Shown: positions 25,868-54,038 of the stretch, one piece after another
Position numbering within the stretch: the first letter of the stretch is position 1
Layout: every line of letters begins with the position of its first letter
Assembly (NCBI GenBank): GCA_963663965.2
Contig: CAXXFK010000038.1
Location: forward strand, 32,001 to 96,000
DNA: 64,000 nucleotides
Direction: 5' to 3'
DNA from: Sedimentisphaerales bacterium
GTDB taxonomy: Bacteria; Planctomycetota; Phycisphaerae; Sedimentisphaerales; SM23-30
Notes under the pieces: model-generated
The model's input: only the letters and a program-made list of their open reading frames with translations
What the model was told of the DNA's origin: nothing
The model's database searches: none
Position numbers and translations under genes: made by a program

Positions 25868-25970
25868 TGTTGTGCCGGCGGGATCGGCATAAAGTTTGTA
25901 ACAAAAAGACATGATTGACGTCTATTCAAAGAGTGTGTTTGTCTACAGGACTTGAAGCAGGTATGAGATT

Positions 25971-27008: not shown

Positions 27009-27052
27009 TCTGATCGAATACCGAGTGAGACGATTTAAGGAGTGAAACCAGC

Positions 27053-28867: not shown

Positions 28868-28879
28868 GAGGTCAAACGG

Positions 28880-32794: not shown

Positions 32795-33657
32795 CCGGGA
32801 CATATGATGAGTATCTGGCGCGTGGCATGCAAGCCGGTTTGCGCTATAGGCTGGCGCCACCACGGCATATTCCGCAAGGCCTGATGGGAGAACAACTGGG
32901 AAACCGGCCCGGTAGTTCGCTGGAATTTATGGATCATCGCGACTATCTTCCGGGCGATGATTTGCGCCGGATCGACTGGTCGGCTTATGCCCGAAGCGAT
33001 AAATTAACCGTCCGGCTCTACCGTGAAGAGATCAATCCCCATCTGGATATTATTCTGGATGGATCGATGAGCATGGCGTTATCCGGGACGGAAAAGCCGG
33101 GCAGTTCGGTGGCGATTGCCGCGATGATGGCCCAGGCGGCCGCGAATGCCGGATTCAGTTATAAACTCTGGCTGGCATCGGACTATTGTATCGATTTACC
33201 GGGTGGCTCGGGTCTACCGACTCACTGGCAGGGGATCCAGTTCAATTATCGCGGTTCACCGGTTGATTCACTGTCGCATCCAACGGGCCGGATGAGGTCG
33301 CGGGCGATGCGGCTGTTGATCAGTGACTTGCTCTGGGCGGGGGATCCGATGCAACCGATGCTGCAACTCAGCCGGGACGCGTCATCCGTTTTCGTGATAC
33401 AGGTTCTGGCGACGGTGGATATCGAACCGCCGGGCCCGGGCAATTTGCGTCTGCTGGATTCGGAAACCGGGCAGTTGTTAGAAGTCTATATTGATACCGC
33501 CGCCCGGCAGCAGTATCTTGACCGGCTGGCGCGGCATCAGCAACTGTGGCAGCAGGCCTGTCAGCATTGCGGCGCCGCGATGACGGTTGTGACAGCCGAG
33601 TCGTATTTACAAACATTTGAACTGAAAGATTTTATCGTTAATGGCATCATACAATAG
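32791..33657 (+). CDS. DUF58 family protein
   Basis: GSSLEFMDHRDYLPGDDLRRIDWSAYARSDKL; LDGSMSM. Confidence 0.92.
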   Translation: MTGTYDEYLARGMQAGLRYRLAPPRHIPQGLMGEQLGNRPGSSLEFMDHRDYLPGDDLRRIDWSAYARSDKLTVRLYREEINPHLDIILDGSMSMALSGTEKPGSSVAIAAMMAQAAANAGFSYKLWLASDYCIDLPGGSGLPTHWQGIQFNYRGSPVDSLSHPTGRMRSRAMRLLISDLLWAGDPMQPMLQLSRDASSVFVIQVLATVDIEPPGPGNLRLLDSETGQLLEVYIDTAARQQYLDRLARHQQLWQQACQHCGAAMTVVTAESYLQTFELKDFIVNGIIQ

Positions 33658-33691
33658 ACATCATCATTCTGCAGGATCAAGATAACCAACA

Positions 33692-35527
33692 ATGGCCATA
33701 TTCGGATTTCCATTAGCATTCTGGGCGCTTAGTTCACTGCCGGTATTGGGCGCGATCTACTGGCTGCGCAACCGTTATCGAAATGTGACAGTCAGTTCGC
33801 TACTGTTATGGGATCAATGTTCCCTGGCCCGGGAGGGCGGTCGAAAATTCCAGCGGATACAGACGGCGTTGCTGTTTTACCTGGAACTGGCCATTTTATC
33901 GTTAACGGCACTGGCCGCCACGGCGCCGTTATTTCCCCTGGGGGGAAAGGTTCGCCATTTGGTAGTGGTACTGGATGATTCCTGGTCGATGCAGGCCGTT
34001 AATGACGGCAAGAGCTTTCGTCAGGCCGGTCTGGAAAAAGTCATGGATGAATTTCTGGCGTATCGACACACGCGCGCCACGGTGATTCTGGCCGGGCATA
34101 CGGTTCGTCAGGCCGGCAGTCATATTTCCAGCAAAGCGGAACTCATCCAAGCGATGGATCAATGGCGATGTCAGTCTGATCGTGTCGACTGGGCGCAAGC
34201 GATCACTTTGTCAACGGGACTGGCGCAAGGCTGGACGGATATTCTGGTTATCAGTGACCATTACCCTGCCGTAGAACCGCAGGGCAATAGCGGGATCCTC
34301 TGGCATGCCGTTGGCAGTGAAGTATCTAATCTGGCGATCACCGGGGCATTTCTCAGTCAGACCGATACGGGCCAACGGCTGGTGGTTGAAGTATCCAATC
34401 TGTCCGGTCAGGATACACGAAGCGCACTCACTGTGGGTGTTGAAAACGAAGATCCGGCCAAGGGGATATCGCGACAGCCGGTAGAACTTTCCGCCCATAG
34501 TGTCAAAAGGCTGGTCTTGAGCCTGCCAGATTCCGACAAACCGGTCGGTGTCCAATTGAAGGGTCAGCGAACGGATGGGCTGTCCGTGGATGATGATGTC
34601 GTTTTAATCCCTTTCGTTCGTAAAAAATTACCGGTCACCGTAGCATTAACCAATACGGATGTCATCCAGTATCTTATCCCGGCGCTGGACGCCAGCGAAT
34701 TGTGTTCGATGGGCGTGGACTCTCCGGAATTGGTGATAACGGATAATTCGACCCAGCTGGGTCAGTCCACCGGCCCATGGCGATTGTGTATTCTCAACGA
34801 ATCCGATGCGGTTCCCATCAATGGGCCGTATCTCACTGATGCAAGTTCGCCCTTGCTGGAGGGCACGCAGTTCAAGCAAGTGGTATGGGGCGCGGCACGG
34901 ATCGAAGAATCTGCCGGAGACGCTCAAACGTCCCATCCGGCTTATCAAGGCCGGCCTCTGATCATGGCCGGCGATGTACCCCTGCTGACAGAATATGTCC
35001 GGCGCGACGGGCGGCTGGATTTTCTGATGCGCTGGAATCCAGACTATTCCAATTTACAAAACGACATCAATTTTCCAATTATGATCACCAACTGTATCCG
35101 AATGTGCATCGCCTCGCGCCCAGGCCCGCAGCGGCCAAACTATGCCGTGGGAGATATTATCGATCTGAATCTGCCAGAGGGCGCCGCCAGAATTGTTGTC
35201 AGCAATCCCTCCGGGAAGCAGTCGGAATATGATCTGGCACAATATGATTCTCGTCAGTTTTCCCTGTCGGCTGAGGAAAAAGGGATCTATCAATTTTCAC
35301 TTTATGACGCGGAGGGCAAGGAACGCATCTATCCAGTCGCCGCCAACTGTCTGGCCCGTTCAGAATCCGATCTGAATGAATGTTCCAAGGGAGAGGTTGG
35401 CGGCTGGCAGGTGGAAACGCAGGCTGACGCCGTCTATCAAAAAGGTTCATGGCTGTTGGTGCTGGCGGCCCTGGTATTGCTGGCGCTCCATCATGTTTTA
35501 ATGGCGCGGGGGAGAGTGCGGCAATGA
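33692..35527 (+). CDS. BatA-like N-terminal + VWA domain protein
   Basis: BatA-like start (LPVLGAIYWLR...VSSLLLW), MIDAS LDDSWSM, C-terminal ESDL followed by a TM segment. Confidence 0.88.
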   Translation: MAIFGFPLAFWALSSLPVLGAIYWLRNRYRNVTVSSLLLWDQCSLAREGGRKFQRIQTALLFYLELAILSLTALAATAPLFPLGGKVRHLVVVLDDSWSMQAVNDGKSFRQAGLEKVMDEFLAYRHTRATVILAGHTVRQAGSHISSKAELIQAMDQWRCQSDRVDWAQAITLSTGLAQGWTDILVISDHYPAVEPQGNSGILWHAVGSEVSNLAITGAFLSQTDTGQRLVVEVSNLSGQDTRSALTVGVENEDPAKGISRQPVELSAHSVKRLVLSLPDSDKPVGVQLKGQRTDGLSVDDDVVLIPFVRKKLPVTVALTNTDVIQYLIPALDASELCSMGVDSPELVITDNSTQLGQSTGPWRLCILNESDAVPINGPYLTDASSPLLEGTQFKQVVWGAARIEESAGDAQTSHPAYQGRPLIMAGDVPLLTEYVRRDGRLDFLMRWNPDYSNLQNDINFPIMITNCIRMCIASRPGPQRPNYAVGDIIDLNLPEGAARIVVSNPSGKQSEYDLAQYDSRQFSLSAEEKGIYQFSLYDAEGKERIYPVAANCLARSESDLNECSKGEVGGWQVETQADAVYQKGSWLLVLAALVLLALHHVLMARGRVRQ

Positions 35528-38391
35528 TTTTGTTCGAACCCATCTGGTTGATTTTAATGATCCCGGCGCTGGTCTGTTTGTATTACTGGCGTATGCCCGG
35601 ACGGTTGCTGGCAGTATTGCGAATTATCCTGGTTGCGTTGTTGATCCTGATTATGACAGATCCGGCCTTGCGTCTGGGTGACCGCCGAGGCACTGTGGTG
35701 GTGATTGCCGACCGGAGCGCTTCCATGCCGCCGGATTCGCAAGAAAGCATGGTCGAAGCAATCCATATTGTCCAGGATGATATGCCAAACGGGAACTCGC
35801 TGGCAGTCGTTTCATTCGGTGAACAAGCGATCATTGACAAAACTCCGCAAAGTCAGCATTTTGAGGAATTAATCGCCAATGTCAATCCTGACGGTTCCAA
35901 TCTGGCTGATGCCCTGAACAAGGCCGTATCCCTGATCGACCGGGATGCTTCGGGCCGGATTCTGGTTTTCAGCGATGGACGCTGGACAGGCTCGTCGCCC
36001 AATGTGATCGCCTCGACCATGGCTTCGCGACACATCGCGATGGACTACCGGATATTTGAACGGCAACAAGGTCGAGATCTGGCGATAATGGACGTGGTCG
36101 CGCCACAGAAAGTTTCGCCCGGCCAGGCCTGGCTGATCAATGCCTGGATCAACTGTCCGGAACCGGTGGAAGTGAATTATGAACTCATCCGCGGGAATCT
36201 GATCATTGGTCGCGGTTCCCGACCACTGAAGTCAGGCCTTAACCGGCTGACCTTTCGTGACCGGGCCGGAGATTATGGCGTGTATGATTATCAATTGAAA
36301 ATTGACGGCTACGCGGACGACCCGGTTGCCCAGAATAATTACGCCCGATTTCTGACCCAGATCGATGTCAACCGTCCCCTGCTGGCGCTCGGTCAGACCG
36401 GGCAGTCCGGACTGGTCAATCTATTGCAGAAAGACGGTATTCCGGTCGTGCGTCAGGAAACCGCCGAAATGGGATTTACCCTGGATGAACTGGCAGGCTA
36501 TTCCGCCATCCTCATAGAAGATCTCGATGCCGGTGAAATAGGGCCGGGTGGCATGGAAAATATCGCCGCATGGGTTACGGACACCGGCGCCGGTGTCATC
36601 ATGACCGGCGGCCCGCACAGTTACGGTCCGGGCGGGTATTTCCGTTCTCCGCTTGAGCCGATCATGCCGGTCAGCATGGAGCTGCGCCGCGAACATCGCA
36701 AGCTCAATATGGCCATTGTGGTCGTGCTGGATCGCTCCGGCAGTATGTCTGTATCGGCAGACGGAATCAAGACCAAGATGGATCTGGCGAACGCGGCTTC
36801 CGCCGAGGTGCTGGGGTTATTGTCGCCCGGCGATGAAATGGGCGTTATTGCCGTTGACAGCGCGGCTCATATCATCGCCGACTGTAAACCGATCGGAGAA
36901 AATGTGGCCGGATTACGGCAGAAAATTCTTTCGATCGAGTCCACCGGAGGGGGAATTTTCGTTTATGAAGGCCTGATCCATGCCGCTTCGCTACTATCGG
37001 GCGCCGAATCAGAGACCAAACACATTATTCTATTTGCCGACGCGGCCGATTCCGAAGAACCGGGCGATTATAAAAATCTGATCGCGAAATGCCGACAGGC
37101 CGGAGTGACGGTCAGTGTGATCGGACTGGGCAGCGAAAAGGATCAGGACGCGGATTTGCTGCGCGATATCGCGTTGCGAGGCGAGGGGCGGTGTTTCTTT
37201 ACGCAAAACGCGCTGGATTTACCCCGTCTGTTTGCCCAGGATACTTTTATGGTGGCCCGTAACAGTTTTATTAATGAACCGGTTGCGTTTGAGTTCAAGG
37301 CCGGCATTGACACCTTGATGGATATTGACACCGCCGGCGATCATCGTGTTGGCGGTTATAATCTCTGTTACATCCGACCTGAAGCGACACTCTCCGCGGT
37401 CACGCTGGATGGATATGACGCGCCCATTCTTGCCCACTGGCAGGCCGGTATTGGCCGGGCGGCGGCATTCTGCGCCCAGGCGGATGGCAATTATGCCGGT
37501 CAACTGGCGCAATGGTCAGAGGCGGGGCGACTTTATAGTTCGCTGGCCCGCTGGGCGATTGGCGATCCACAGGGTTTGGGACAGAACATTCTGGTCACCC
37601 AGGAAATTAACAAGGGTATCTGTCAGGTGCAGATTCACATTGATTCCCGGCTGGACCGGTTGCCGTTCAGTGAACCGCCGGTGGTTAATGTCCTGCGCGA
37701 ACGGCCGGGCCGGGAGCCGGCCAGAGAGCAACTCCGGTCCACATTGATCAGCGCCGATAAGTTTGCCGTAGATATTCCCTTAAGCAGTGACAAGACGGTG
37801 CTGGCTACTGTAGACGCCGGTGCCACCGGTAACGTGACGCTGCCGCCGGTCTGTTTACCTTATTCTCCGGAATATCTCCCGGAAGACGCCGTTGGCGGTC
37901 AGGAGACATTGCAGCGTTTAAGTCGCATGACCGGAGGAGGGCGACTGGCTGACCTGACTGGAATCTGGGATTCGTTGGAAGGCCGTCCGGTCTATGTCGA
38001 TATGACTCCATGGCTGGCCATGGTGGCGATTGTGCTGTTTCTGCTGGAAATTCTTGAGCGTCGAACGGGTGTCCTGTCAATGCGGCCAGTCAAACGCTGG
38101 CTGGAAAGGAGAAAAGCCAAAGGTCTCCAACCCGCAGTGGCGCTGGAATCCACGGAGGAATCCACTGAAACCGAGAAGCGTGTTTTGCCGGTCAAGCCCA
38201 AAAGGGGATATTGGGACATCCTGTCAAAAGTGAAAATCAGACATCAATCATCTACCGAGCAAAAAGCTGAAAGTTCCCCCAGAAAAGATCAGCAACCCAT
38301 CACAAAGCCGGTTGCGCCTCCCCAACCGACAGAAGCTGATTCAGGAGAAGGATTGTTGGATGCGTTAAATAAAATCAAACGCAAGCATTGA
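35524..38391 (+). CDS. Double-VWA + glutamine-amidotransferase-like membrane protein
   Basis: MIDAS motifs ADRSASM and LDRSGSM, FSDG, GGPHSYGPGGY...PV, C-terminal TM segment followed by LERR. Confidence 0.88.
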   Translation: MILFEPIWLILMIPALVCLYYWRMPGRLLAVLRIILVALLILIMTDPALRLGDRRGTVVVIADRSASMPPDSQESMVEAIHIVQDDMPNGNSLAVVSFGEQAIIDKTPQSQHFEELIANVNPDGSNLADALNKAVSLIDRDASGRILVFSDGRWTGSSPNVIASTMASRHIAMDYRIFERQQGRDLAIMDVVAPQKVSPGQAWLINAWINCPEPVEVNYELIRGNLIIGRGSRPLKSGLNRLTFRDRAGDYGVYDYQLKIDGYADDPVAQNNYARFLTQIDVNRPLLALGQTGQSGLVNLLQKDGIPVVRQETAEMGFTLDELAGYSAILIEDLDAGEIGPGGMENIAAWVTDTGAGVIMTGGPHSYGPGGYFRSPLEPIMPVSMELRREHRKLNMAIVVVLDRSGSMSVSADGIKTKMDLANAASAEVLGLLSPGDEMGVIAVDSAAHIIADCKPIGENVAGLRQKILSIESTGGGIFVYEGLIHAASLLSGAESETKHIILFADAADSEEPGDYKNLIAKCRQAGVTVSVIGLGSEKDQDADLLRDIALRGEGRCFFTQNALDLPRLFAQDTFMVARNSFINEPVAFEFKAGIDTLMDIDTAGDHRVGGYNLCYIRPEATLSAVTLDGYDAPILAHWQAGIGRAAAFCAQADGNYAGQLAQWSEAGRLYSSLARWAIGDPQGLGQNILVTQEINKGICQVQIHIDSRLDRLPFSEPPVVNVLRERPGREPAREQLRSTLISADKFAVDIPLSSDKTVLATVDAGATGNVTLPPVCLPYSPEYLPEDAVGGQETLQRLSRMTGGGRLADLTGIWDSLEGRPVYVDMTPWLAMVAIVLFLLEILERRTGVLSMRPVKRWLERRKAKGLQPAVALESTEESTETEKRVLPVKPKRGYWDILSKVKIRHQSSTEQKAESSPRKDQQPITKPVAPPQPTEADSGEGLLDALNKIKRKH

Positions 38392-38623: not shown

Positions 38624-40789
38624 TTATGCCTGATTTTCCAGATCCATTTCGCCGATAAACCGGATCAGTTTCCGATAGAGGATCAATCCCAGGCTTTTGT
38701 TCCGGCCTTTCATGGCGACCATCCCGGTGGAACCATACTGGAAACCCTCTGGCACCGGTCCATCCAGATTGATAACAATTTTATGATAGGTGTCCAATAC
38801 CCGGCCATTTAACGGATCTATGGGCAACGAACCCTGGCCGGCCGTCGTCAGGGTCAGATCATGAACATAATCCACCGGCGCCGGCGATACGTATACCAGT
38901 GTTCCTGTCAGGGCCATCCGGGGATGCATCGCGCTACGAAAGACCATTTTTTTCCCAACCATTTCCTGTACTTCGATCACATCCTTCTGATGTATCCATG
39001 CTTCACACTGCCAATTGCCATCGGCCAGGCGGGCCACTTCTTCACCCGGTTGGACATAATACCCGGCGTTTTCCAATTGAGGGCAGTCAATCAAAGTCCC
39101 ATCAGAATCCGTCCGGACATTCAGTTGTTCCAGATCCTTACTGCTGGTTTGCACCAGCGCGGTCAAACGGGTTACTATTTCCAGTTGCTGCGCGATTTCC
39201 ACGGGATCGATGGTACTATCCGATTGATAAAGCGTGAGTAGCTTCCGCGCCTGAGTCAATCGATTCCGGGCATCCAGATACTTCTCATGCAAAAGATGAT
39301 TATCCAGTTCCATAATGGGAGTCGCCGCTTCCACCCGGTCCCCCGTCTGGGCAAGAACCCGTTTGACAAAACCGCTTTGACGCGTCCTTATGATTTGTTC
39401 ATGTTCACGGATCAGACGCGCTTCGGCCCGGATCGGGCACGGAATCGGCATATAGACAATGGCAGCAGGCACAATCATGAGGAACAGCAATGCCGCGATA
39501 CTGGTACGCCAGCGATAGCGTGAAGCCTCCGGTGATTTTCTCAAATAAACCGTAATGCGAGTCAGTATCGAAAAGACCGTCATGGCAATGTACAACCCAG
39601 CCAGCGCCAAACCGAAAATAAGCATTTTACGAGCGATGACCCAGGATAACGCCAGGACAATACTGACTTTATAGATTGAAGCAAAAATGCCGAAGGTTAA
39701 CAGGAAAAACGCCATCCAACCACGGGGGCCCGGCTCATTACTTTTAATTCGCAAGAATAACCGTTTGCAGACCCGAACCAGATAATCGCGTGACCGGCTT
39801 CTTAAGTTGGGCATTTCCAGCAGATCGCTCAGGATATAGTAGCCATCAAACCGCATCAATGGATTGACATTCATCAGGAGCGTGGTCACGCTGGCCAGGA
39901 AAAAGATATTGTACGCCAGCATCCGCGTGGAATAGGACTCGGAGGCACACCAGACCAGCAGTGCGATCATGGCGATCATGGATTCAAAATAAACGCCCCC
40001 CAATCCGACGATAATCCGTTTTATTTTGCTGTTAAATCCCCATGAACTGGTTACATCCACATAAGCGCAGGGGGTGAGCATAATCAGGTACACGCCCATG
40101 TCGGTGACCTGTCCGCCAAACAACTTGCAGGCGTAGCCGTGTCCCAATTCATGGATTGCCTTGAGTAAAATTAACGAAATCCATAAGATCGCCATATTCC
40201 CGGCGCTGAAGAGAGAACCGGAAAAGGTTTGGATCTCTCCAAAATGCCGAACCGTTAATGCCGCGGATCCGCCCAACAGGATCAGGTATATAATAAAAAA
40301 TACCCGAGTAAACAGCGGGCGCACCAGATGGGCGGTCTTTTCCAGGAAATTGTCCGGATTCAACAAGGGGATCTGCAGAAAAAACAGACTAAACAATTTC
40401 TGCATCCGTTGCGCTTTCTGTCTTTGAATATGCCGCCGGTAAAGCGCCTTGTCGCTTGAAATAGGCAGTTGCAGAAAATTCAGCTGGTGGAGATTCAATA
40501 CAAACTTGAAAAATGGCTCCTGATCTTCCGGATTCATCCACTCCTTTTCGACCAGGATCTGAAATATTTCAGCCAGGGTAAGAGCCGGTGTCAGTTGACA
40601 AAATATCAGATATTCTTTTAAATTAAATTGATAGCATTGCAGCGACAGGGGATCGCGCACCACATAATAAGGTTCGCCATGATTGAGATGACGATGGATC
40701 TCCAGATCATTACGCAATCCGATGTGGGCCTTGCCCAGACGTTCATGCAAGCGGACCGTATTGTCTTGTGTTGTATCGGCTTGTACCAT
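38624..40789 (-). CDS. PqqD/RRE-like + M50 (site-2) metalloprotease + HlyD-type membrane-fusion domain protein
   Basis: N-terminal YVVRDP...EYLIFCQL...TLAEI; HELGH; NVNPLMRFDGYY; GFVKRVLAQTGDRVEAATPIMEL lipoyl-like half and coiled coil. Confidence 0.88.
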   Translation of the reverse strand: MVQADTTQDNTVRLHERLGKAHIGLRNDLEIHRHLNHGEPYYVVRDPLSLQCYQFNLKEYLIFCQLTPALTLAEIFQILVEKEWMNPEDQEPFFKFVLNLHQLNFLQLPISSDKALYRRHIQRQKAQRMQKLFSLFFLQIPLLNPDNFLEKTAHLVRPLFTRVFFIIYLILLGGSAALTVRHFGEIQTFSGSLFSAGNMAILWISLILLKAIHELGHGYACKLFGGQVTDMGVYLIMLTPCAYVDVTSSWGFNSKIKRIIVGLGGVYFESMIAMIALLVWCASESYSTRMLAYNIFFLASVTTLLMNVNPLMRFDGYYILSDLLEMPNLRSRSRDYLVRVCKRLFLRIKSNEPGPRGWMAFFLLTFGIFASIYKVSIVLALSWVIARKMLIFGLALAGLYIAMTVFSILTRITVYLRKSPEASRYRWRTSIAALLFLMIVPAAIVYMPIPCPIRAEARLIREHEQIIRTRQSGFVKRVLAQTGDRVEAATPIMELDNHLLHEKYLDARNRLTQARKLLTLYQSDSTIDPVEIAQQLEIVTRLTALVQTSSKDLEQLNVRTDSDGTLIDCPQLENAGYYVQPGEEVARLADGNWQCEAWIHQKDVIEVQEMVGKKMVFRSAMHPRMALTGTLVYVSPAPVDYVHDLTLTTAGQGSLPIDPLNGRVLDTYHKIVINLDGPVPEGFQYGSTGMVAMKGRNKSLGLILYRKLIRFIGEMDLENQA

Positions 40790-40792
40790 GCG

Positions 40793-42676
40793 TCAATACC
40801 AAAAATGCATCTGGACATATTCGATGACTTTATGCAAGGCGATCCACCAGACGGGTCGTCGTCCGGCTTCGACCCGTGCCACCCCTTCCATGCCCGAGCG
40901 AATCCATTCCGGATTGAGATCGGATTCCGCCCGCACGATATAGATATTTTTTTTGTTAGACAGGGCGACCGTCGGTGATAAATGCCGGATGGTCAAACCG
41001 TAGGCTTCTTCAGGACGGGCACCGGCGGAAAACGTTCCCGACATATTCACCAGAATATCATCCATTGCCTGTTCCGGAATATTCAATTCAATAAGCCACT
41101 GACCGGAGGGCGCCAGTTCGAACAAGGGGGCGCCCAGTGGCAATATCTGGCCGGTTTGACGGGCCGGATCGCCCTTGATTACCTGACCATCATAAGGGGC
41201 TTTAATGATCAGGCGTCCGATACGTTGATCGAGAATGTCAAGCCGGGATAGCAGATAATCACTGTTGGCGCGCGCCAGTTCAATATCCGTGGTCGACCCA
41301 TTCGCCACCGCTTTTTGCGTTTCAAGCCGGGCAATATTATACTCTGCCAGCAATTCACTACGCTGCAATTGGAGCATGTCGTTGCTGAAACGGCACAGGA
41401 TGTCGCCCTGTTTGACCCGGTCGCCCTCTTTGACCAACACTTCGTCAAGGCGCGCCTCGGCCGGGGTGGCAAAATGGCGAATCTGTGCAGGAACCGCGCG
41501 CGCCGGCACGGTAATCCGATAAGGCAAGCTGGCAAACAGGAACCAGTTGACTAACGCCAACAGCGCGACGATAACAAACACATTGACCAGGCCGCGAATG
41601 GTTTTCAGCTTGTCAATTTGGTGATATATGGAGCTGAAACCATGCATGAATAAAGAACGATTGGCCCGGTCGACCAGGTGATAGGCGCCAATCAGCGGTT
41701 CGGTTATTTCACGAATTTTACTCAGTTCCGTTTCGTCAAAGGGCAGGTCGGCGCCACGGCGCAAGCTCAATACCGCCTGACAACGGCCATCGGCTCCCCG
41801 AAGGGGAATCGAAGCGACGGCCGAGTTGCCAGTGGCGGTATGCCACTGCCGGTGTAAACGCAGATCATTGGTCATGGTATACTTAGAACCGTGCCGTACA
41901 TGATGAAACAGGCAAAATGCCTGCGTATCGAGACATTCGAGCATCGCCTCATTAATGCGGTCAATTTCTTTGCTGCCTTTTTTAATGGTATCGTGACCGG
42001 ATATGGAAACGATGTTGACTTTGCGCTTATGAACAATCCCCAGCGAGATCTGATCGCATCCAATGCGGTTACGCAAATTGTTGGTAATGGCGAAACCCAA
42101 TTCTTTTCCTGAGGTATAGCCGGCCGCACGGGCAAGGGTTTGCGTGTCCTGAAGGAACCCGGTCTGGTTTGGATTGTGATCGGTTAGACCGGAAATGTAG
42201 GACATAAACAGGGTATACGCTTCGAGAGCGATCGATTGCTGAATCGCCTGCTGACGGTCTTTGCAGTAAATCACCAGAACGATCGCCCCGATCATGGCGC
42301 TATCGTCGTTATAAACAGGGCAGGACAGGAACGCGATCGAATTGTCACTGGATTCCCGGTGAGCGTACATTTTCAGGCCGGAGGTCCTCCGGGACAGCGT
42401 TTCGTTGAGGAACTCCCGGGCCGATTTTTTCCAGAAATCCGGCGAGGTCGAACCACTGTGCCAGTATTCTTCCAATACATCCGAGGCACGTTGAATATAT
42501 AACGTTGCGTAAGGGCAGGAAAATTGGCCAGCGATTATCCCCAAAGCCTGTTGATAAAGCGCCCTTCTGTTCTTTGTTTGACGGGCTTTATCAATTAATG
42601 CGCGATAGACCTGGTTGGGTGATTGTTGGCGGGCATTTCCCATTTTCTCCTGATTGTTTTCCAGCTTCTGCGTCAT
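40793..42676 (-). CDS. GAF-like domains + HlyD-type membrane-fusion protein
   Basis: ASIPLRGADGRCQAVLSLRR...PFDETEL (GAF-like), one TM segment, EVLVKEGDRVKQGDILC, IKAPYDGQVI, IRSGMEGVARV. Confidence 0.88.
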   Translation of the reverse strand: MTQKLENNQEKMGNARQQSPNQVYRALIDKARQTKNRRALYQQALGIIAGQFSCPYATLYIQRASDVLEEYWHSGSTSPDFWKKSAREFLNETLSRRTSGLKMYAHRESSDNSIAFLSCPVYNDDSAMIGAIVLVIYCKDRQQAIQQSIALEAYTLFMSYISGLTDHNPNQTGFLQDTQTLARAAGYTSGKELGFAITNNLRNRIGCDQISLGIVHKRKVNIVSISGHDTIKKGSKEIDRINEAMLECLDTQAFCLFHHVRHGSKYTMTNDLRLHRQWHTATGNSAVASIPLRGADGRCQAVLSLRRGADLPFDETELSKIREITEPLIGAYHLVDRANRSLFMHGFSSIYHQIDKLKTIRGLVNVFVIVALLALVNWFLFASLPYRITVPARAVPAQIRHFATPAEARLDEVLVKEGDRVKQGDILCRFSNDMLQLQRSELLAEYNIARLETQKAVANGSTTDIELARANSDYLLSRLDILDQRIGRLIIKAPYDGQVIKGDPARQTGQILPLGAPLFELAPSGQWLIELNIPEQAMDDILVNMSGTFSAGARPEEAYGLTIRHLSPTVALSNKKNIYIVRAESDLNPEWIRSGMEGVARVEAGRRPVWWIALHKVIEYVQMHFWY

Positions 42677-42769
42677 GGATATTCATTTAAATTTTAAAGA
42701 TGAATAATTATACAAATTACGTTTAGATGCCGGGAGACGCGAATGTCCCGATCGCCCAGTCGCCCCCAA

Positions 42770-43192
42770 TCAGATCAGGCTGATGTTTTCTTCCGATTCA
42801 ATCGTTTCAGGGAGAATCACCCTGGTAAAAAATGAAAATCCGGTTTCGAAAGAATCCTCACTAATCAGCTTGCAGCGCATGCACCTGGCAAAAACCATGG
42901 GGATATCCACGACATCCCGGTCAAAATAAAGGCGGTAAATATCTCCAATTTTCAACGGAGCCGGGAACATGGCGCGGCAGCCGCCGGAAGAAATATCCCC
43001 GGAGATGCCCAGCATCTTCATATTGAGACATTCACTGGTATTGCCCGGTTGAAGAATGATTTTTGCCTTAATCACCAGACGTTCTGAGGATCGTTGACGA
43101 CGAATATTATCACTGGTCTGATCTTCAATTTCTTTTAAGATATCAAAGCCGTAATCTTCGTTCGTCAGAGAATAATTGATATCATCGTTCAT
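42770..43192 (-). CDS. PilZ domain protein (c-di-GMP receptor)
   Basis: RxxxR (QRSSER) and DxSxxG (DISSGG) motifs; terminal GFSF strand. Confidence 0.85.
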   Translation of the reverse strand: MNDDINYSLTNEDYGFDILKEIEDQTSDNIRRQRSSERLVIKAKIILQPGNTSECLNMKMLGISGDISSGGCRAMFPAPLKIGDIYRLYFDRDVVDIPMVFARCMRCKLISEDSFETGFSFFTRVILPETIESEENISLI

Positions 43193-43295
43193 GGTATTTC
43201 TTAAATCAAAAAAAGCCAATAAATAACTGTAATAACAGTTAATTTATCGGCCTGGAGCAGCAGCGGATTAATGGAAAAAAGGAAAATATGTGATC

Positions 43296-46200
43296 TTATT
43301 TATCGGACTGGTTTATGACTCCAGCCATATTGCGAATCAACATCCACAGGCGTCCTAAAGCCCCGTTTTGCTGAGGGGATCCGGTGATTGGAGTTTCCGG
43401 TTCGTGGGTTGTTTCGGCATGGATTGGGGAATCGAACTCATCAGCCGAACCGTTATCGGTCGTGATCTGGTCGGTGATCCCAGATGGCAGTTCGGTGAAC
43501 AGGTCGTCAAACATCTTGTCGCTGACAAATTCAAGCGGAACATCCAGGGCTTCGGCTATCAGCGCATCAGTGGACCACTCAATTTCATTACTGTCAAAAC
43601 CATTTTGCCCCGAATGTTCGTCATGATCGTTATTAAAACGCCTGGTATTCTGGATCGATTCCTGCGTAATCATTTCGGAAGAATGTTCGTAAGGATGGTT
43701 CTGATAAATGATCGATTCGTTATCGACCGGATTCATGATTTTCAGAACCTGTTGATCGGTATCCTGTTTGGGCCCGGCATCCGCCACCTTAGAAATCTGC
43801 TGGTCCGCGGGAGTATTATCGGAAGAGATATTGGAGTCGGAGGGATTCTGATCATCCGAATTGGTTCGAATGACTTTGTGATGATCCGCTTCAACCTGGA
43901 TGGATATGCTGTCAGAGACCACGGTCGAACCGTCGGACACCCGAAGCTCGAGAGTCACTTCCGCATCGGAATGGATATTGGATGGGATAATTACCGGATC
44001 GGGCGAATCTGGATTAAGAATTTTCACCGCAGGGCCCGAGGTTTGCACCCAGGTGTAGGTCAGGTTATCCCCATCGATATCATCCGCCTGGCCATTAAGA
44101 GTGATTGGCTGTTTTTCACGGGCAACAGTATCGTCTCCGGCGCTGACGACAGGAGCATCATTGACAGCATTTACCTGAAGCGTAACCGTCGCAGTATGGA
44201 AGCCACCCTGGCCGTCTGATACCTGATAGGTAAAACTGTCCTGACCGTTGTAGTTTGGTGAGGGAGAATAAGAGAAAGTGCCATCCTGGTTATATATTAC
44301 CGATCCATGTTCAGGTTGGGTAAAATCAGCAATTGACAACAAGTCGCCATCGATATCCGTATCGTTATCCAGAACCCGGGAGGTCGTGATCGTCTGGTCC
44401 TCATTGGTTTCGAAATGATCATTCGTTGTCTGAGGGGTATCGTTCACACCCTGGGTATTTAACTCGACAGTCGCAGTACTTTTCGCGCCATCGCCATCCA
44501 TCACGGTATAGGTAAAATTGTCCTGACCATGGAAATTGGCGTTGGGAGTATAGGTGAAGGTGCCATCCTGATTATAAACAACATGGCCATGCGCAGGCTG
44601 ACTGTAATCACCTACGTTTAAAGTATCGCCATCCGCATCGGTATCATTTACCAGTACATTGGCCGTTCGAATCGGTTGATCTTCCAGTCCGCCATATTGT
44701 TCACCAAAAGCTTGGGGGGCATCGTTTACAGCGTTTACTTTGACGTTCACAGTTACGGTATCGGTCCCCCCGTTGCCATCGGAGACGGTATAGGTAAAAC
44801 TGTCGTGTCCGTTGAAATTGGCGTTGGGCGTATAGGTGAAGGCGCCATCGCCATTATGAACAACCGAACCGTTGGCCGCCTGACTGTAATCGGTGATCGT
44901 CAGAGAATCGCCATCCGCGTCGATATCGTTGGCGAGGACATTACCCGTCGTGAAGGGTGTGTCTTCCGAGGTGGCGAAGGAATCACCGGCCGCCTGGGGC
45001 GCGTCGTTAGCGGCGCCGACGTTCACGTTCACAGTTACGGTATCGGTCCCCCCGTTGCCATCGGAGACGGTATAGGTAAAACTGTCGTGTCCGTTGAAAT
45101 TAGCGTTGGGCGTATAGGTGAAGGCGCCATCGCCATTATGAACAACCGAGCCGTTGGCCGCCTGACTGTAATCGGTGATCGTCAGAGAATCGCCATCCGC
45201 GTCGATATCGTTGGCGAGGACATTACCCGTCGTGAAGGGTGTGTCTTCCGAGGTGGCGAAGGAATCACCGGCCGCCTGGGGCGCGTCGTTAGCGGCGCCG
45301 ACGTTCACGTTCACAGTTACGGTATCGGTCCCCCCGTTGCCATCGGAGACGGTATAAGTAAAACTGTCGTGTCCACTGAAATTGGCGCTTGGGGTATAAG
45401 TGAAGGTGCCATTGCCGTTATTCGCGACCGAGCCATGAGCGCCTTGACTGAAATCACTGATCGTTAAGATGTCGCCATCGATATCGGTATCATTGGCCAG
45501 GACATTCCCTGTTGTCACGGGTGTATCTTCAGCAGTAGCGATCTGTTCGCCGATACCCATTGGACTGTCATTAGTGCTTTGCACGGTTATTTCAATAGTA
45601 GCCGAACTTATGCCTCCATTACCATCTGAAACTTCATAAGTAAAACTATCCGGACCGTGATAATGTTGATCGGGGACATAAGTGAAGGTCCCATCGTTGT
45701 TGTGAGTTATCGAGCCATGTTGGGGTTGAGTAAAATCAGTGATGGTCAGAGTGTCACCATCGCTGTCAATGTCGTTATTCAGAACATTTCCGGTATTGAG
45801 TGTGCTGTCTTCATTAACCTGATAAGTATCAATATTCGCGACGGGTGCGTTGTTTACTGGAGCCGGAGCCACATCGATTACAATTTCATTAATGTCATTC
45901 GTGAGGTTTTCGACGCTATTAAGTGTATCGGATCCCAGATTGCCATCGTCGCTATCCGTATCAGCGATCGTTCCAAAACCATCGTTCATTTGAATGTTAT
46001 AACCATTCATCGTCCCTGCCAGAACGGCGTAATCATTCCCATCGCCACCATAAAGCTGGTCGTTGCCTGAATCAGCGATAAATATATCGTCGCCGCCCAT
46101 GCCGTAGAGTTTGTCATTGCCGGAGCCGCCGATGATGACATCGTTGCCGCCGGTGCCGTAGATGGTATCATGGCCGCTGCCGCCATCAATGGCGGCGACG

Positions 46201-48563
46201 CCTGAGAAGGTGGCATTGGAGAAGTCGAGGGTATTGTTGGCCCAGTTGCCTTTGAGGGTGATATCATTGCCGGAGAACTGCTCGACTGTGGCATCGTCCG
46301 TATGGGTGGTCATGATGACTTCGGTGCCGGTCCCGACGACGGTATCATAACCATCGCCGCCATAAAAAGTGTCTTCGCCATCCCCATTGTTATAGATGAA
46401 GGTGTCGTCGCCGCCCATGCCGTAGAGTTTGTCATTGCCGGAGCCGCCGATGATGACATCGTTGCCGCCGGTGCCGTAGATGGTATCATGGCCGCTGCCG
46501 CCATCAATGGCGGCGACGCCTGAGAAGGTGGCATTGGAGAAGTCGAGGGTATTGTTGGCCCAGTTGCCTTTGAGGGTGATATCATTGCCGGAGAACTGCT
46601 CGACTGTAGCATCGCCGGTGTGGGTGGTCATGATGACTTCGGTGCCGGTCCCGACGACGGTATCATAACCATCGCCGCCATAAAAAGTGTCTTCGCCATC
46701 CCCATTGTTATAGATGAAGGTGTCATCGCCGCCCATGCCGTAGAGTTTGTCATTGCCGGAGCCGCCGATGATGACATCGTTGCCGCCGGTGCCGTAGATG
46801 GTATCATGGCCGCTGCCGCCATCAATGGCGGCGACGCCTGAGAAGGTGGCATTGGAGAAGTCGAGGGTATTGTTGGCCCAGTTGCCTTTGAGGGTGATAT
46901 TGTCGCCGGAGAACTGCTCGACCGTGGCATCGTCCGTATGGGTGGTCATGATGACTTCGGTGCCGGTCCCGACGACGGTATCATAACCATCGCCGCCATA
47001 AAAAGTGTCTTCGCCATCCCCATTGTTATAGATGAAGGTGTCGTCGCCGCCCATGCCGTAGAGTTTGTCATTGCCGGAGCCGCCGATGATGACATCGTTG
47101 CCGCCGGTGCCGTAGATGGTATCATGGCCGCTGCCGCCATCAATGGCGGCGACGCCTGAGAAGGTGGCATTGGAGAAGTCGAGGGTATTGTTGGCCCAGT
47201 TGCCTTTGAGGGTGATATTGTCGCCGGAGAACTGCTCGACCGTGGCATCGTCCGTATGGGTGGTCATGATGACTTCGGTGCCGGTCCCGACGACGGTATC
47301 ATAACCATCGCCGCCATAAAAAGTGTCTTCGCCATCCCCATTGTTATAGATGAAGGTGTCGTCGCCGCCCATGCCGTAGAGTTTGTCATTGCCGGAGCCG
47401 CCGATGATGACATCGTTGCCGCCGGTGCCGTAGATGGTATCATGGCCGCTGCCGCCATCAATGGCGGCGACGCCTGAGAAGGTGGCATTGGAGAAGTCGA
47501 GGGTATTGTTGGCCCAGTTGCCTTTGAGGGTGATATCATTGCCGGAGAACTGCTCGACTGTAGCATCGTCCGTATGGGTGGTCATGATGACTTCGGTGCC
47601 GGTCCCGACGACGGTATCATAACCATCGCCGCCATAAAAAGTGTCTTCGCCATCCCCATTGTTATAGATGAAGGTGTCGTCGCCGCCCATGCCGTAGAGT
47701 TTGTCATTGCCGGAGCCGCCGATGATGACATCGTTGCCGCCGGTGCCGTAGATGGTATCATGGCCGCTGCCGCCATCAATGGCGGCGACGCCTGAGAAGG
47801 TGGCATTAGAGAAGTCGAGGGTGTTATTGGCCCAGTTGCCCTTGAGGGTGATATTGTCGCCGGAGAATTGTTCCACTGTGGCATCATCCGTATGGGTGGT
47901 CATGATGACTTCGGTGCCGGTCCCGACGACGGTATCATAACCATCGCCGCCATAAAAAGTGTCTTCGCCATCCCCATTGTTATAGATGAAGGTGTCGTCA
48001 CCACTACCCCCGTATAACTTGTCATTTCCGGTTCCGCCATAAATTAAATCATTTCCATCACCCCCATCGATGGTATCGTGACCGCTGCCACCGATAATTA
48101 CATCATCGCCGCCACCGCCACTTAAATTATTATTAGCCCAGGTTCCGATGATGATATCATTACTATCTGAACCATTTTCATTTGAGAGTATGGTCCATGA
48201 CCCGTCCGAAAAATTGATGGTATTGGCGTCATTATTAATAACCAGCGATTGATCATCGAATGAAAGAGTCAGATGGCCCTGTTGATCGACCGAATAATCG
48301 AAAATGTCATGATTGCCTTCAATCGTATATGAATTGGTAGCTTGATCGAAGACCGCATGGTCCAGATCACCAAATACATCCGGTTGGTTAACCCCCATGT
48401 CTTCCAGTATATCGGCATCCAAAACCGGTAAGTCCGGCTGGGCATCCGGGGCGCCATCATCAACATCCACCCAGGTGGCTGAAAGCATGATTCTGGGTTC
48501 AAGCGCTGTGACCTGGATATTATTCAGTTTATCAGAATTCTTCTTTTTCATGACAGTTTTCAT
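43296..48563 (-). CDS. 1755-aa LEPRxLL-leader adhesin: RTX Ca-binding repeats + tandem cadherin-like/Big_9 domains + PKD-like domain
   Basis: ALEPRIMLSA at aa 20-29; many GGxGxDxxxG repeats; about 6 NDAP...ED...NVLANDxDxDGD...GxFTYTP...DSFTY domains; SAGDD...LTYTWVQTSGP. Confidence 0.92.
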   Translation of the reverse strand: MKTVMKKKNSDKLNNIQVTALEPRIMLSATWVDVDDGAPDAQPDLPVLDADILEDMGVNQPDVFGDLDHAVFDQATNSYTIEGNHDIFDYSVDQQGHLTLSFDDQSLVINNDANTINFSDGSWTILSNENGSDSNDIIIGTWANNNLSGGGGDDVIIGGSGHDTIDGGDGNDLIYGGTGNDKLYGGSGDDTFIYNNGDGEDTFYGGDGYDTVVGTGTEVIMTTHTDDATVEQFSGDNITLKGNWANNTLDFSNATFSGVAAIDGGSGHDTIYGTGGNDVIIGGSGNDKLYGMGGDDTFIYNNGDGEDTFYGGDGYDTVVGTGTEVIMTTHTDDATVEQFSGNDITLKGNWANNTLDFSNATFSGVAAIDGGSGHDTIYGTGGNDVIIGGSGNDKLYGMGGDDTFIYNNGDGEDTFYGGDGYDTVVGTGTEVIMTTHTDDATVEQFSGDNITLKGNWANNTLDFSNATFSGVAAIDGGSGHDTIYGTGGNDVIIGGSGNDKLYGMGGDDTFIYNNGDGEDTFYGGDGYDTVVGTGTEVIMTTHTDDATVEQFSGDNITLKGNWANNTLDFSNATFSGVAAIDGGSGHDTIYGTGGNDVIIGGSGNDKLYGMGGDDTFIYNNGDGEDTFYGGDGYDTVVGTGTEVIMTTHTGDATVEQFSGNDITLKGNWANNTLDFSNATFSGVAAIDGGSGHDTIYGTGGNDVIIGGSGNDKLYGMGGDDTFIYNNGDGEDTFYGGDGYDTVVGTGTEVIMTTHTDDATVEQFSGNDITLKGNWANNTLDFSNATFSGVAAIDGGSGHDTIYGTGGNDVIIGGSGNDKLYGMGGDDIFIADSGNDQLYGGDGNDYAVLAGTMNGYNIQMNDGFGTIADTDSDDGNLGSDTLNSVENLTNDINEIVIDVAPAPVNNAPVANIDTYQVNEDSTLNTGNVLNNDIDSDGDTLTITDFTQPQHGSITHNNDGTFTYVPDQHYHGPDSFTYEVSDGNGGISSATIEITVQSTNDSPMGIGEQIATAEDTPVTTGNVLANDTDIDGDILTISDFSQGAHGSVANNGNGTFTYTPSANFSGHDSFTYTVSDGNGGTDTVTVNVNVGAANDAPQAAGDSFATSEDTPFTTGNVLANDIDADGDSLTITDYSQAANGSVVHNGDGAFTYTPNANFNGHDSFTYTVSDGNGGTDTVTVNVNVGAANDAPQAAGDSFATSEDTPFTTGNVLANDIDADGDSLTITDYSQAANGSVVHNGDGAFTYTPNANFNGHDSFTYTVSDGNGGTDTVTVNVKVNAVNDAPQAFGEQYGGLEDQPIRTANVLVNDTDADGDTLNVGDYSQPAHGHVVYNQDGTFTYTPNANFHGQDNFTYTVMDGDGAKSTATVELNTQGVNDTPQTTNDHFETNEDQTITTSRVLDNDTDIDGDLLSIADFTQPEHGSVIYNQDGTFSYSPSPNYNGQDSFTYQVSDGQGGFHTATVTLQVNAVNDAPVVSAGDDTVAREKQPITLNGQADDIDGDNLTYTWVQTSGPAVKILNPDSPDPVIIPSNIHSDAEVTLELRVSDGSTVVSDSISIQVEADHHKVIRTNSDDQNPSDSNISSDNTPADQQISKVADAGPKQDTDQQVLKIMNPVDNESIIYQNHPYEHSSEMITQESIQNTRRFNNDHDEHSGQNGFDSNEIEWSTDALIAEALDVPLEFVSDKMFDDLFTELPSGITDQITTDNGSADEFDSPIHAETTHEPETPITGSPQQNGALGRLWMLIRNMAGVINQSDK
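44743..45375. repeat. 282-bp intragenic tandem repeat (about 2.3 copies, 94-aa Ig-like domain)
   Basis: ACGTTCACAGTTACGGTATCGGTCCCCCCG at 44743, 45025 and 45307; identical shadow ORFs at 44893 and 45175. Confidence 0.9.
46087..47999. repeat. 318-bp intragenic tandem repeat, six near-identical copies (106-aa RTX unit)
   Basis: Shadow ORFs recur at 46162, 46480, 46798, 47116, 47434 and 47752 (period 318). Confidence 0.95.
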
Positions 48564-49592
48564 TCCTATGCTTACAAAATTGATATAAACCTTTAGTAAC
48601 TAAACAGACGCAAAAAATATAAAATACAGATAACAGAAATGCCAATTCAGGAGGGAAAAAAAACGGGTTTTTTATAAAAAAGAAGGGGATGTGGTGTTAA
48701 AGTGAACTTAATTAGACAATTGCAATCGTGATAACACTATCATTTTTCTCCGAACCGCGATCGGGAAAATAAGTAAACTTCAAATTTAACCCGGGAATTA
48801 TAGTCCTATAAGTGTGTCAGGAAGAATTTGATACGGTATTTTGATTTTTCCAATTCCATTCGCATCATTTCATTCGGGCCTTATACAAAAAAAAGCCCTT
48901 TTGCTTTAGGCATCAGGGCGATCATAAGAAAATAAAATCGAAATAAGAGATGGGATGCGCCGTCAGGCTATTTACCAGCCTTGGCTTCTCAGTCAAGCCC
49001 GGCCAGTCTTGGACCTGAGTTTTTCAGTGAACTCCGGTTGGTCCATTGTCAATCAGAACATACAGCTTTCGGTCAACTCTGTGTGTGTTCATAAATTCAA
49101 CTCATCGAATCCCATTCTATCTATTTCGGTTAACCAGACTTTCATTATATCTTAACCGATCATGCCAGCAATGATATTTTAAAACCTTTTACCATTATTG
49201 CTGTAACTTCATATCCCAGGCATGGATACAATACGACATATAATAAGACAATTTACGGGTCCGATATCTGCCAGTTCATCATTGGCCGATCAGGAGGATT
49301 GGATGGCAGTAACTCACGATCAGGAGGCAACAGCATCGAGCGAGGCGGCATGGCGAAACCTGAGGGGATGATTAGGGAGGGCCTAGAAGAGGGGCGACTT
49401 TAATAAAAAAAACTACATAACATGTTGTGAATAAAGGCAATATGGCTATCATGGTTGATATGACAGTTTACGGATGATTTCGGTGAGTTTTCTGTTGTAA
49501 TTGCACGTAAGTTGGACTATCATAATGGTTTCTATTGTTTTTGAGCTGATGAGCTGACCCGATAGATTTTGAGACTGAATTGAAAGGCACAT

Positions 49593-53959: not shown

Positions 53960-54038
53960 GGCCGCACTATAATTCAATAAATGAATCAAATCGGGGAAGC
54001 GCAAGCTTCCTGAAAATATAAGCGAACAACTGGATATT

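Follow-up and report, generated by a model that had tools for sequence, protein, structure and literature searches.

Within a planctomycete genome, a cluster of four genes on the minus strand was analysed as a candidate system for the export of a giant protein with an N-terminal LEPR-XLL tag. The stretch concerned, referred to as the window, spans 64,000 nucleotides (positions 32,001–96,000 of contig CAXXFK010000038.1 from Sedimentisphaerales bacterium, GCA_963663965.2; the genome is 94.6% complete). We consider it moderately probable that this four-gene module exports and processes the giant across the envelope, needing neither an ATP-binding cassette (ABC) transporter nor a dedicated SecA to do so. 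The assignment of LEPR-tagged giants as cargo of the module has good comparative and structural-prediction support, and the window holds a new variant, SecA-less and PilZ-linked, of a module known solely from a computational paper of 2015 (Kamneva, Poudel & Ward, PLoS One, PMC4452313). Some of the largest proteins in bacteria are of the LEPR-XLL kind. If the module is their exporter, an orphan N-terminal tag gains a reader, the in-silico module gains a cargo, and a further envelope-spanning secretion design is added, with a protease-headed adaptor instead of an ABC pump. The leader tag might then be used to export very large repetitive proteins. In the following, L numbers denote the loci examined, G numbers the sampled genomes and C numbers the contigs of the source genome.

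The cluster encodes the giant, a PilZ protein and two membrane fusion proteins (MFPs, or adaptors), one headed by tandem GAF folds and the other by a RiPP recognition element (RRE; RiPP, ribosomally synthesised and post-translationally modified peptide) and an M50 peptidase core with transmembrane (TM) segments. The four co-oriented genes of the original prediction were recovered in place, as were its motifs LEPRIMLSA, HELGH and NPLMRFDG, and, in agreement with it, no ABC or TolC gene lies within 38624–48563. From the giant to the M50-adaptor on the minus strand, the intergenic gaps are 76, 93 and 3 nt. The features, in window coordinates, are:

43296–48563, minus strand: giant, putative cargo protein of 1755 residues (open reading frame (ORF), Pfam, NCBIfam), with LEPR-XLL leader, RTX, cadherin-like/Big_9 and PKD domains and an acidic tail
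48474–48563, minus strand: leader, residues 1–30 (NF012209), with LEPRIMLSA at 48477–48503 and the clade-specific extension LEPRIMLSATWVD
45849–48224, minus strand: RTX calcium-binding repeat region, residues ~114–905 (HemolysinCabind, 10 stretches)
43308–43364, minus strand: C-terminal motif GALGRLWMLIRNMAGVINQ, residues 1734–1752, conserved among the giants of clade B (defined below)
42770–43219, minus strand: PilZ-domain protein, 149 residues (PF07238), with RxxxR at 43079–43093 and DxSxxG at 42980–42997
40793–42676, minus strand: GAF-GAF-TM-adaptor (MFP), 627 residues (HlyD_3, HlyD_D23; AlphaFold2 folds)
41612–42676, 41519–41611 and 40796–41518, minus strand: cytoplasmic tandem GAF, TM helix and periplasmic MFP part of the 627-residue protein
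38624–40789, minus strand: RRE-M50-TM-adaptor fusion, 721 residues (Pfam, NCBIfam, AlphaFold2 folds)
40466–40729, 39452–40342 and 38666–39442, minus strand: RRE, M50 membrane core and MFP part of the 721-residue protein
40139–40153 and 39842–39865, minus strand: zinc-site motifs HELGH and NPLMRFDG of the 721-residue protein
48616–48645, minus strand: promoter-like site TTGGCA-18 nt-TATATT (10/12 match, consensus scan), 53–82 nt upstream of the ATG of the giant; weak evidence, as the scan gave 18 sites against 16.5 expected

The 721-residue protein fits peptidase family M50 by its zinc motifs and membrane core, and peptidase activity is predicted. PF02163 matches it with 33.2 bits (cut-off 27.2), next to HlyD_3 and HlyD_D23, and multiple TM segments are present. 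HELGH corresponds to residues 213–217 and NPLMRFDG to residues 309–316; H213, E214, H217 and D315 are invariant among 80 aligned M50-adaptor relatives. In the AlphaFold2 model (pLDDT 90.1, pTM 0.73), three parts were recognised. Residues 21–108 adopt the RRE (PqqD-like) fold of a three-stranded sheet with a winged-helix bundle, superposing on 6jx3 chain B with a Z-score of 10.5 (root-mean-square deviation 2.6 over 84 of 85 residues) and on 5v1u chain A with a Z-score of 10.2, both of them lasso-peptide B1 proteins solved with leader peptides. Residues 197–390 form an S2P core similar to that of RseP (9j83 chain A, Z 9.2, 163 residues aligned), and residues 450–708 a MacA/MexA-like MFP part (Z 13–15; Foldseek E-value to MacA 8e-14) with modelled hairpin helices at 498–523 and 529–554. 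The RRE and RseP matches came from a wide VIA search; Foldseek against the PDB with the whole model returned adaptor proteins alone. The PqqD family of Pfam (PF05402) was detected in 22 of 39 N-terminal domains of the family and not, at E≤0.01, in the window copy; the family profile matched PqqD (3g2b) with an E-value of 0.0022.

The putative reader and the leader were co-folded, using residues 1–450 of the M50-adaptor with zinc and a 60-residue leader in three runs, along with three controls. The runs gave ipSAE values of 0.62, 0.62 and 0.60, compared with 0.01 for the best control. Of 157 solved complexes, 116 reached the mark applied, as did 2 of 215 mismatched pairs; these counts are a rough guide here, as the small custom alignments and the riding zinc ion lie outside the calibration. 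At least 78% of the contacts were common to the runs, with a partner pLDDT of at least 52. In the predicted complex, leader residues 19–21 are added as a strand along RRE strand 51–55; Glu22 lies near N328 and S331, Arg24 contacts residues 245–250, R258 and Y318, and Met26 contacts H217, which places Arg24 and Met26 at the HExxH/Asp zinc site. The leader is thus predicted to be held by the RRE domain and to reach the zinc site. Residues E22, R24 and S28 are invariant in an alignment of 12 leaders. Because RRE–leader complexes, in which the leader is bound as an extra β-strand, have been solved, the result may in part reflect likeness to them. A leader-docking role of the M50-adaptor agrees with the RRE fold and with the modelled complex.

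The same domains invite a different substrate, such as a RiPP-like peptide or a signal for regulated intramembrane proteolysis, with the giant nearby by chance. RRE domains are a typical component of RiPP pathways, and among named families those nearest to the M50-adaptor are leader proteases of RiPPs: the daptide protease NF041824 at 164 bits (against a cut-off of 300) and, at 51 bits, the YydH/LiaK type. The window also contains a second adaptor pair, described below, with no giant beside it. Against this stand the choice of the giant's own leader in the co-fold, the absence from the cluster of any short precursor-like gene or modification enzyme, and two comparative results presented in the following paragraphs: the adjacency and co-occurrence with LEPR giants in two phyla, and the leader subtype, which tracks the clade of the cassette. 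We judge such a substrate highly improbable.

The giant carries the LEPR-XLL signature at its very start. NF012209 (LEPR-8K) matched its first 60 residues at positions 20–29, and the whole-genome search with this model scored the leader with 18.5 bits at the same position; LEPRIMLSA itself spans residues 21–29. As the original prediction had stated, a hydrophobic Sec signal is lacking (19-residue Kyte–Doolittle mean ≤0.79 within residues 1–70), and no TM segments were found in the whole 1755-residue protein. Pfam assigned 10 RTX stretches, seven cadherin-like/Big_9 domains and one PKD domain; the RTX repeats are N-proximal, and a low-complexity acidic tail ends the chain. Within the RTX region, Tandem Repeats Finder reported 6.0 copies of a 318-nt unit (46087–47999, 98% identity). 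A second tandem repeat (282 nt, 2.8 copies, 91% identity, 44743–45530) covers cadherin-like domains. These near-perfect repeats are prone to copy-number change and mis-assembly.

At the other end of the chain, the C-terminal motif LGRLWML-x-RN-x-x-G is common to the giant and a paralogue on contig C21. By eye, an L-W-x-L-x-R-x-x-x-G-like C-terminus is clear among clade-B giants in the window, L123, L118, L001 and L002, looser in L008 (no Arg) and doubtful in L119; looser W-L-R-type C-termini were also seen on some clade-A giants (L006, L012). The paralogue (C21:105206–114788, minus strand; L083) has the near-identical leader LEPRIMLSATWVD and the shared C-terminal motif with no cassette beside it, and is broken into ORFs of 2232 and 938 residues, whether by a stop, a frameshift or faulty assembly. 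Two further LEPR-type genes of the source genome were recorded. On C11 (141644–147832, minus strand), a TolC-like gene (569 residues) lies directly upstream of a LEPR-type protein of 1477 residues (LENLEKRLLLSA). On C33 (220773–222485, plus strand; L127), the leader LEQLESRFLLSA heads a 570-residue protein with PPC and caspase-like (Peptidase_C14) domains, so the LEPR tag is not confined to giant adhesins.

Comparison across genomes links the M50-adaptors to LEPR-XLL proteins, a co-occurrence that the original prediction had proposed to look for and that proved strong in both phyla surveyed. Among 401 Planctomycetota genomes, 59 had both a LEPR match and an M50-adaptor, seven LEPR alone, 45 the M50-adaptor alone and 290 neither (odds ratio 54); M50-adaptor genes thus occur in 59/66 LEPR-positive versus 45/335 LEPR-negative genomes. 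For 385 Gammaproteobacteria, the corresponding counts were 30, 19, 32 and 304 (odds ratio 15), that is, 30/49 versus 32/336. Most of the 19 M50-negative gammaproteobacterial LEPR matches are weak and on short frames; with LEPR matches taken at E≤1e-3, the counts became 22, 3, 40 and 320 (odds ratio 59). The association, repeated in two phyla, also holds at the level of single loci. LEPR and M50 genes are adjacent on one contig in many genomes, for example G474, G734, G732, G554, G751, G517, G697, G140, G356, G402 and G297, and LEPRxLL-type starts were found on cassette-adjoining giants with a visible N-terminus in L012, L013, L039, L046, L063 and L077. In four of five genomes searched whole, the best NF012209 matches begin giant ORFs ending just upstream of the cassette (8696, 9147, 2948 + 4548 + 1574 in tandem, and 6258 residues), the fifth genome being too fragmented. 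LEPR-linked open frames reach 14,112 residues. The literature searches made turned up no published link between LEPR-XLL proteins and the M50-adaptor module; the supplements of PMC4452313 may list large neighbours.

The pair of GAF-adaptor and M50-adaptor is, as judged from sequence, a conserved module. At least 984 M50-adaptor relatives were found at E≤0.001 among 7998 candidates scored, and among species genomes a scan confirmed 331 stretches that encode such a protein, of which 80 were kept and examined. These 80 loci come from Planctomycetota, Verrucomicrobiota, Alpha-, Beta- and Gammaproteobacteria, Nitrospira, Desulfobacterota, Myxococcota and Bacteroidota, and the genes in them were counted with profiles run against every ORF. 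Directly upstream of the M50-adaptor, 61/68 evaluable loci have a long GAF-type adaptor. A shortened SecA (SecA_DEAD + PPXD, no wing/scaffold) is present in 49/64 evaluable loci (46 by script, plus L015, L075 and L019 by hand), and in 48 of these 49 it lies directly downstream of the M50-adaptor gene. A TolC-type gene occurs in 13/80 loci and SapC in 5/80, and seven GGDEF/EAL genes were assigned by sequence clustering, with three members verified against Pfam. ABC ATPases do not belong to the module: their domains were found anywhere within 10 kb in only 7/80 loci and were never adjacent, as anticipated for pairs that do without a neighbouring ABC. The remark that the cluster has no TolC holds for 38624–48563 and does not extend to the cassettes of its relatives, which often include one.

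This module has a precedent in print. Kamneva, Poudel & Ward described in 2015, by comparative genomics, a "secondary SecA_DEAD" locus related to type I secretion systems (T1SSs), with a GAF-HlyD protein beside a Peptidase_M50-HlyD protein and no ABC, in Planctomycetes, Verrucomicrobia, Proteobacteria and Nitrospirae. In their proposal, the short SecA would be the ATPase, and the membrane domain of M50 would form the pore in place of that of the ABC. The replacement of the ABC by the M50 domain, put forward in the original prediction, is therefore an idea already published, there with the shortened SecA as motor; and because that SecA is present in 49/64 evaluable loci, "ABC-less" does not mean motor-less in general. 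The main text of the paper calls the biological role "completely unknown", names no cargo and does not mention RTX, adhesins or PilZ. Two other sources were set aside as precedents: a preprint on giant genes (10.1101/2023.11.21.568195), which in the part consulted covers SecA-like domains inside Omnitrophota giants, a different thing, and a review of tripartite pumps (Chem Rev 2021, PMC8277102), whose passages mentioning M50 and SecA are unrelated to the module.

A FastTree phylogeny of 83 M50-adaptors resolved three clades. The SecA-linked form makes up clade A (60 rows, support 98). The 721-residue protein of the window falls in clade B (11 rows, support 100), which has a SecA-like neighbour in 0/11 cases and a PilZ neighbour in 8/11. 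Clade C (12 rows, support 100) has a SecA-like neighbour in 1/12 and includes the second pair of the window. The complete order giant, PilZ, GAF-adaptor, M50-adaptor recurs in L119, and PilZ, adaptor, M50-adaptor in L116, L124, L001, L002 and L005; L121 is probably arranged likewise, with the PilZ ORF called and the remaining genes placed from match coordinates. A LEPR giant adjoins the clade-B cassette in L119, L120 and L123, and in L118, where the giant is cut at its 5' end, an in-frame LEPR match further upstream (3899-residue open frame) implies one. Since a SecA-like motor has been dropped and a cyclic di-GMP (c-di-GMP) receptor added, the clade of the window is the simplest form in which to ask about pore and energy.

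The absence of SecA-like neighbours in clade B was followed beyond the loci. A PF07517 search found a single canonical SecA in 5/5 related clade-B genomes searched, two of them assembled in 1–2 contigs. Among the planctomycete genomes, a second SecA-type match occurred in 64/104 M50-positive versus 4/297 M50-negative ones, and LEPR matches in 46/64 genomes with M50 and a second SecA, 13/40 with M50 only and 7/297 without M50. A SecA-less clade exists, yet it is in genomes with the short SecA that the association with LEPR is at its strongest. The source genome itself has an unlinked second SecA_DEAD (C27:1–1602, plus strand; L082), cut by the contig edge and with no wing/scaffold or SEC-C; its orthologue in a sister genome (L115; 642 residues, 66% identical) has no M50 or adaptor gene nearby. 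A third M50-adaptor copy of the source genome (C18:284–3144, plus strand; L081), which follows a short adaptor at the contig start and precedes a histidine kinase, is spread over four frames and represents a pseudogene or poor assembly. It was considered as the lost upstream neighbour of the second SecA and rejected, its orientation being wrong and its sequence split over four frames.

Leader subtype tracks cassette clade. Clade-B leaders read LEPRIMLS-x-TW(V/I/A)D in 5/5 neighbours (that of L122 lies ~11 kb from its M50 gene), clade-A leaders LEPRxLLSA(D/E)P or similar in 6/6 (TWxD in 0/6), and clade-C leaders VEELE(E/D)RIAPA or LEDRKLPAP in 2/2 (TWxD in 0/2). The second pair of the window (52031–56252, plus strand), 3.5 kb from the first, belongs to clade C and comprises a GAF-type adaptor of 642 residues and an M50-adaptor of 737 residues, the latter with a direct PqqD match in Pfam. 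Next comes an S41/PDZ C-terminal processing protease (56507–58750), and no giant adjoins the pair. The sister genome has, upstream of its clade-C cassette, a giant of ~2900 residues that starts ...VEELEERIAPA. A 1931-residue protein of the source genome (C37:1966–7761, minus strand) starts ...RLNVEELEDRIAPATT, and it is a candidate cargo of the second pair because it shares the leader dialect of that sister giant.

Regulation of the clade-B cassettes may involve c-di-GMP. The 149-residue protein matches the PilZ receptor family by domain (PF07238, 26.0 bits; cut-off 22.5) and motifs, and ligand binding is predicted. It starts at TTG, with an ATG nine codons further in. RxxxR and (D/N)xSxxG, which we take to be the c-di-GMP-receptor motifs of PilZ, are present as RSSER and DISSGG and are invariant in 9/9 orthologues beside clade-B cassettes, where the orthologues match with E-values of 1e-33 to 1e-45. 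The RxxxR motif is mentioned in the consulted part of a preprint by Galperin & Chou (10.1101/814665). In one relative, most likely L024 as judged by its N-terminal sequence, PilZ is fused to the GAF-adaptor; together with Alg44, discussed below, this fits a coupling of the module to c-di-GMP through PilZ.

The label "GAF-MFP" given earlier to the 627-residue protein held at the level of the fold, with a tandem GAF arrangement in the AlphaFold model (pLDDT 83.6), and not at that of the domain search, as Pfam finds no GAF in this protein. Residues 16–173 match 4g3k chain A (Z 14.3, root-mean-square deviation 3.6, 148 residues aligned) and residues 178–337 match 8jrc chain B (Z 13.1); Pfam does recognise GAF in 15/19 aligned relatives. 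A single TM helix (residues 356–386) leads to a periplasmic part resembling MacA/EmrA (Z 15–16; Pfam HlyD_3 and HlyD_D23), with modelled hairpin helices at 433–459 and 462–488. Searching the source genome by phmmer with the N-terminal half of the protein returned no paralogue; the family profile did recover the adaptor of the second pair.

Export machinery elsewhere in the source genome bears on a further explanation, in which an ordinary T1SS with an unlinked ABC reads a C-terminal signal on the giant and the neighbouring adaptors are accessory or regulatory. Its RTX repeats and conserved C-terminal motif would suit such a substrate, and one full-length ABC exporter (ABC_membrane + ABC_tran) is encoded on C33, in a genome that is 94.6% complete. 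Against the HlyB model, that exporter falls short of the cut-off (343 bits), and neither an MFP nor TolC lies beside it; no PrtD/HlyB-type ABC (TIGR01842, TIGR01846) was found over curated cut-offs in the genome. ABC ATPases near related loci are as rare and as distant as described above, and both the LEPR/M50 association and the covariation of leader and clade would be left unexplained. This explanation is improbable in our view. TolC-like genes are present and unlinked (C26:58688–60382, 274 bits, and C11:146123–147832), and the two MFPs with their α-hairpins correspond to the adaptor of a classical T1SS (Foldseek E-value ~1e-13, Z 13–16). As the genome is 94.6% complete and contains the unlinked SecA_DEAD and the C33 ABC, a motor may act in trans.

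A third account keeps the leader contact and moves translocation elsewhere. The giant would cross by another route, possibly C-terminus first, and the RRE-M50-adaptor would hold and cleave its leader under c-di-GMP control, as a tether-and-release or sorting device akin to a sortase or to LapG. Conservation of the C-terminal motif on clade-B cargos leaves room for C-terminus-first export or for such a role of the protease. The invariant protease motifs suggest that catalysis, and not just scaffolding, is under selection; the docking of the leader on RRE and active site suits processing as well as export; no motor was found in clade B; and M50 proteins are proteases that are not known to act as channels. 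Conversely, both proteins have complete MacA/EmrA-like adaptor parts with α-hairpins, and the TolC (13/80) and SecA-like motor (49/64) of relatives read as the parts list of a trans-envelope conduit. Furthermore, no other exporter is linked in the loci examined, and the giant has no Sec-type signal. We regard this account as fairly unlikely.

For export and processing by the module, which we favour, the following sequence of events is conceivable. The leader would dock on the cytoplasmic RRE and be cut by the M50 domain near LEPR/IML. Both adaptors, each contributing one TM helix and a MacA-like hairpin and barrel, would be arranged around the membrane domains of M50 and extend to a TolC-type channel encoded elsewhere, for which the C26 and C11 genes are candidates. 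PilZ, and perhaps also the GAF domains, might license export at high c-di-GMP. The energy could be supplied by either SecA (the unlinked SecA_DEAD or the canonical one), by the proton-motive force, or by calcium driving the N-proximal RTX repeats to fold outside the cell. In its boldest form, the route would be motor-less: a ring of RRE-M50-adaptor and GAF-GAF-adaptor acts as the inner-membrane gate, reads and cuts the leader and passes the giant N-terminus first into the TolC duct, pulled by RTX folding or the proton-motive force and switched by c-di-GMP through PilZ, with each clade using its own leader dialect (LSA(D/E)P, LSxTWxD or LE(E/D)RxxPA). This form is put forward tentatively and is judged unlikely.

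Several points weigh against export by the module. Export, cleavage and assembly are what we infer from sequences and predicted structures, and the co-fold, with its custom small alignments and riding zinc ion, falls outside its calibration. The giant combines RTX repeats with a conserved C-terminal motif, as do substrates exported C-terminus first. S2P/M50 proteins are not known as protein-conducting pores. No motor was found for clade B among the linked genes or in the SecA search of five genomes, and the C27 second SecA_DEAD and the C33 full-length ABC are both present in a 94.6%-complete genome. Of ~11 LEPR-type proteins in this genome, just the giant of the window adjoins a cassette, and the clade-B cassette of the sister genome (L116) has no giant beside it. 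Among planctomycetes, 45/104 M50-positive genomes lack a LEPR match and seven LEPR-positive ones lack M50; Fisher p-values for the association are overstated because related genomes are not independent.

The surroundings of the cluster were also inspected. The nearest ABC ATPase (28880–29821, plus strand) was rejected as a motor, as it is on the opposite strand, inside a MoxR/DUF58/BatA/VWA cluster that was not found beside related cassettes. This cluster (24422–38391, plus strand), comprising MoxR AAA, DUF58, BatA-VWA and VWA genes with the ABC-2-type ATPase, converges on the M50-adaptor gene and holds four ORFs of 481, 604, 494 and 517 residues without a Pfam match. Towards the end of the window (61778–63988, minus strand), a 736-residue fusion of pyridine-nucleotide-disulphide oxidoreductase, rhodanese, TusA and DsrE-like domains represents a sulphur-handling protein.

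With respect to known systems, the cluster includes the MFP of a classical T1SS and not its dedicated HlyB/PrtD ABC; the RTX repeats are N-proximal, and a C-terminal motif is present. The contrast with classical T1SSs is less sharp than drawn in the original prediction, as bacteriocin-type T1SSs read N-terminal leaders. CvaAB-TolC and PCAT1 resemble the module in an N-terminal leader cut by a protease of the inner-membrane component, together with MFP and TolC; their protease, a C39 cysteine peptidase, forms part of an ABC whose ATP hydrolysis drives export, the leaders are of the double-glycine kind and the cargos are small peptides, whereas the putative cargos of the module measure 1755 to >14,000 residues. 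The LapA/LapBCE and LapD–LapG system shares a giant RTX/Ig-like adhesin, the MFP/TolC logic and c-di-GMP-controlled N-terminal proteolysis. LapA, however, is exported by the ABC LapB via a C-terminal signal, and LapG is a periplasmic cysteine protease under LapD, whereas the membrane protease of the window is of the M50 type, carries an RRE and is associated with PilZ. Compared with M50-type RiPP leader proteases and RRE proteins, the HExxH intramembrane core (164 bits to NF041824) and the leader-binding fold are alike; the score is below the 300-bit cut-off, the protease of the window is fused to an MFP, and it presumably acts on a giant's leader and not on a short precursor. As described in the consulted part of 10.1101/814665, Alg44, with PilZ fused to an HlyD-type adaptor, likewise combines a c-di-GMP receptor domain with a membrane-anchored MFP, and it acts on polysaccharide with a glycosyltransferase, whereas the window has a separate 149-residue PilZ protein and a presumed protein cargo. 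The module presented in the main text of Kamneva et al. agrees with the window in an M50-HlyD protein adjoining a GAF-HlyD protein without an ABC; the cluster studied here differs in having neither the shortened SecA nor the further small HlyD/biotin_lipoyl adaptor by which the published module is defined, nor the TolC gene that the latter sometimes includes, and its M50-adaptor falls in a separate clade of the tree. The link to LEPR leaders, the RRE domain and the PilZ component go beyond that main text. Finally, the giant belongs with the LEPR-XLL family NF012209, whose signature it carries on a very large protein with 20.9 bits, above the cut-off of 17.

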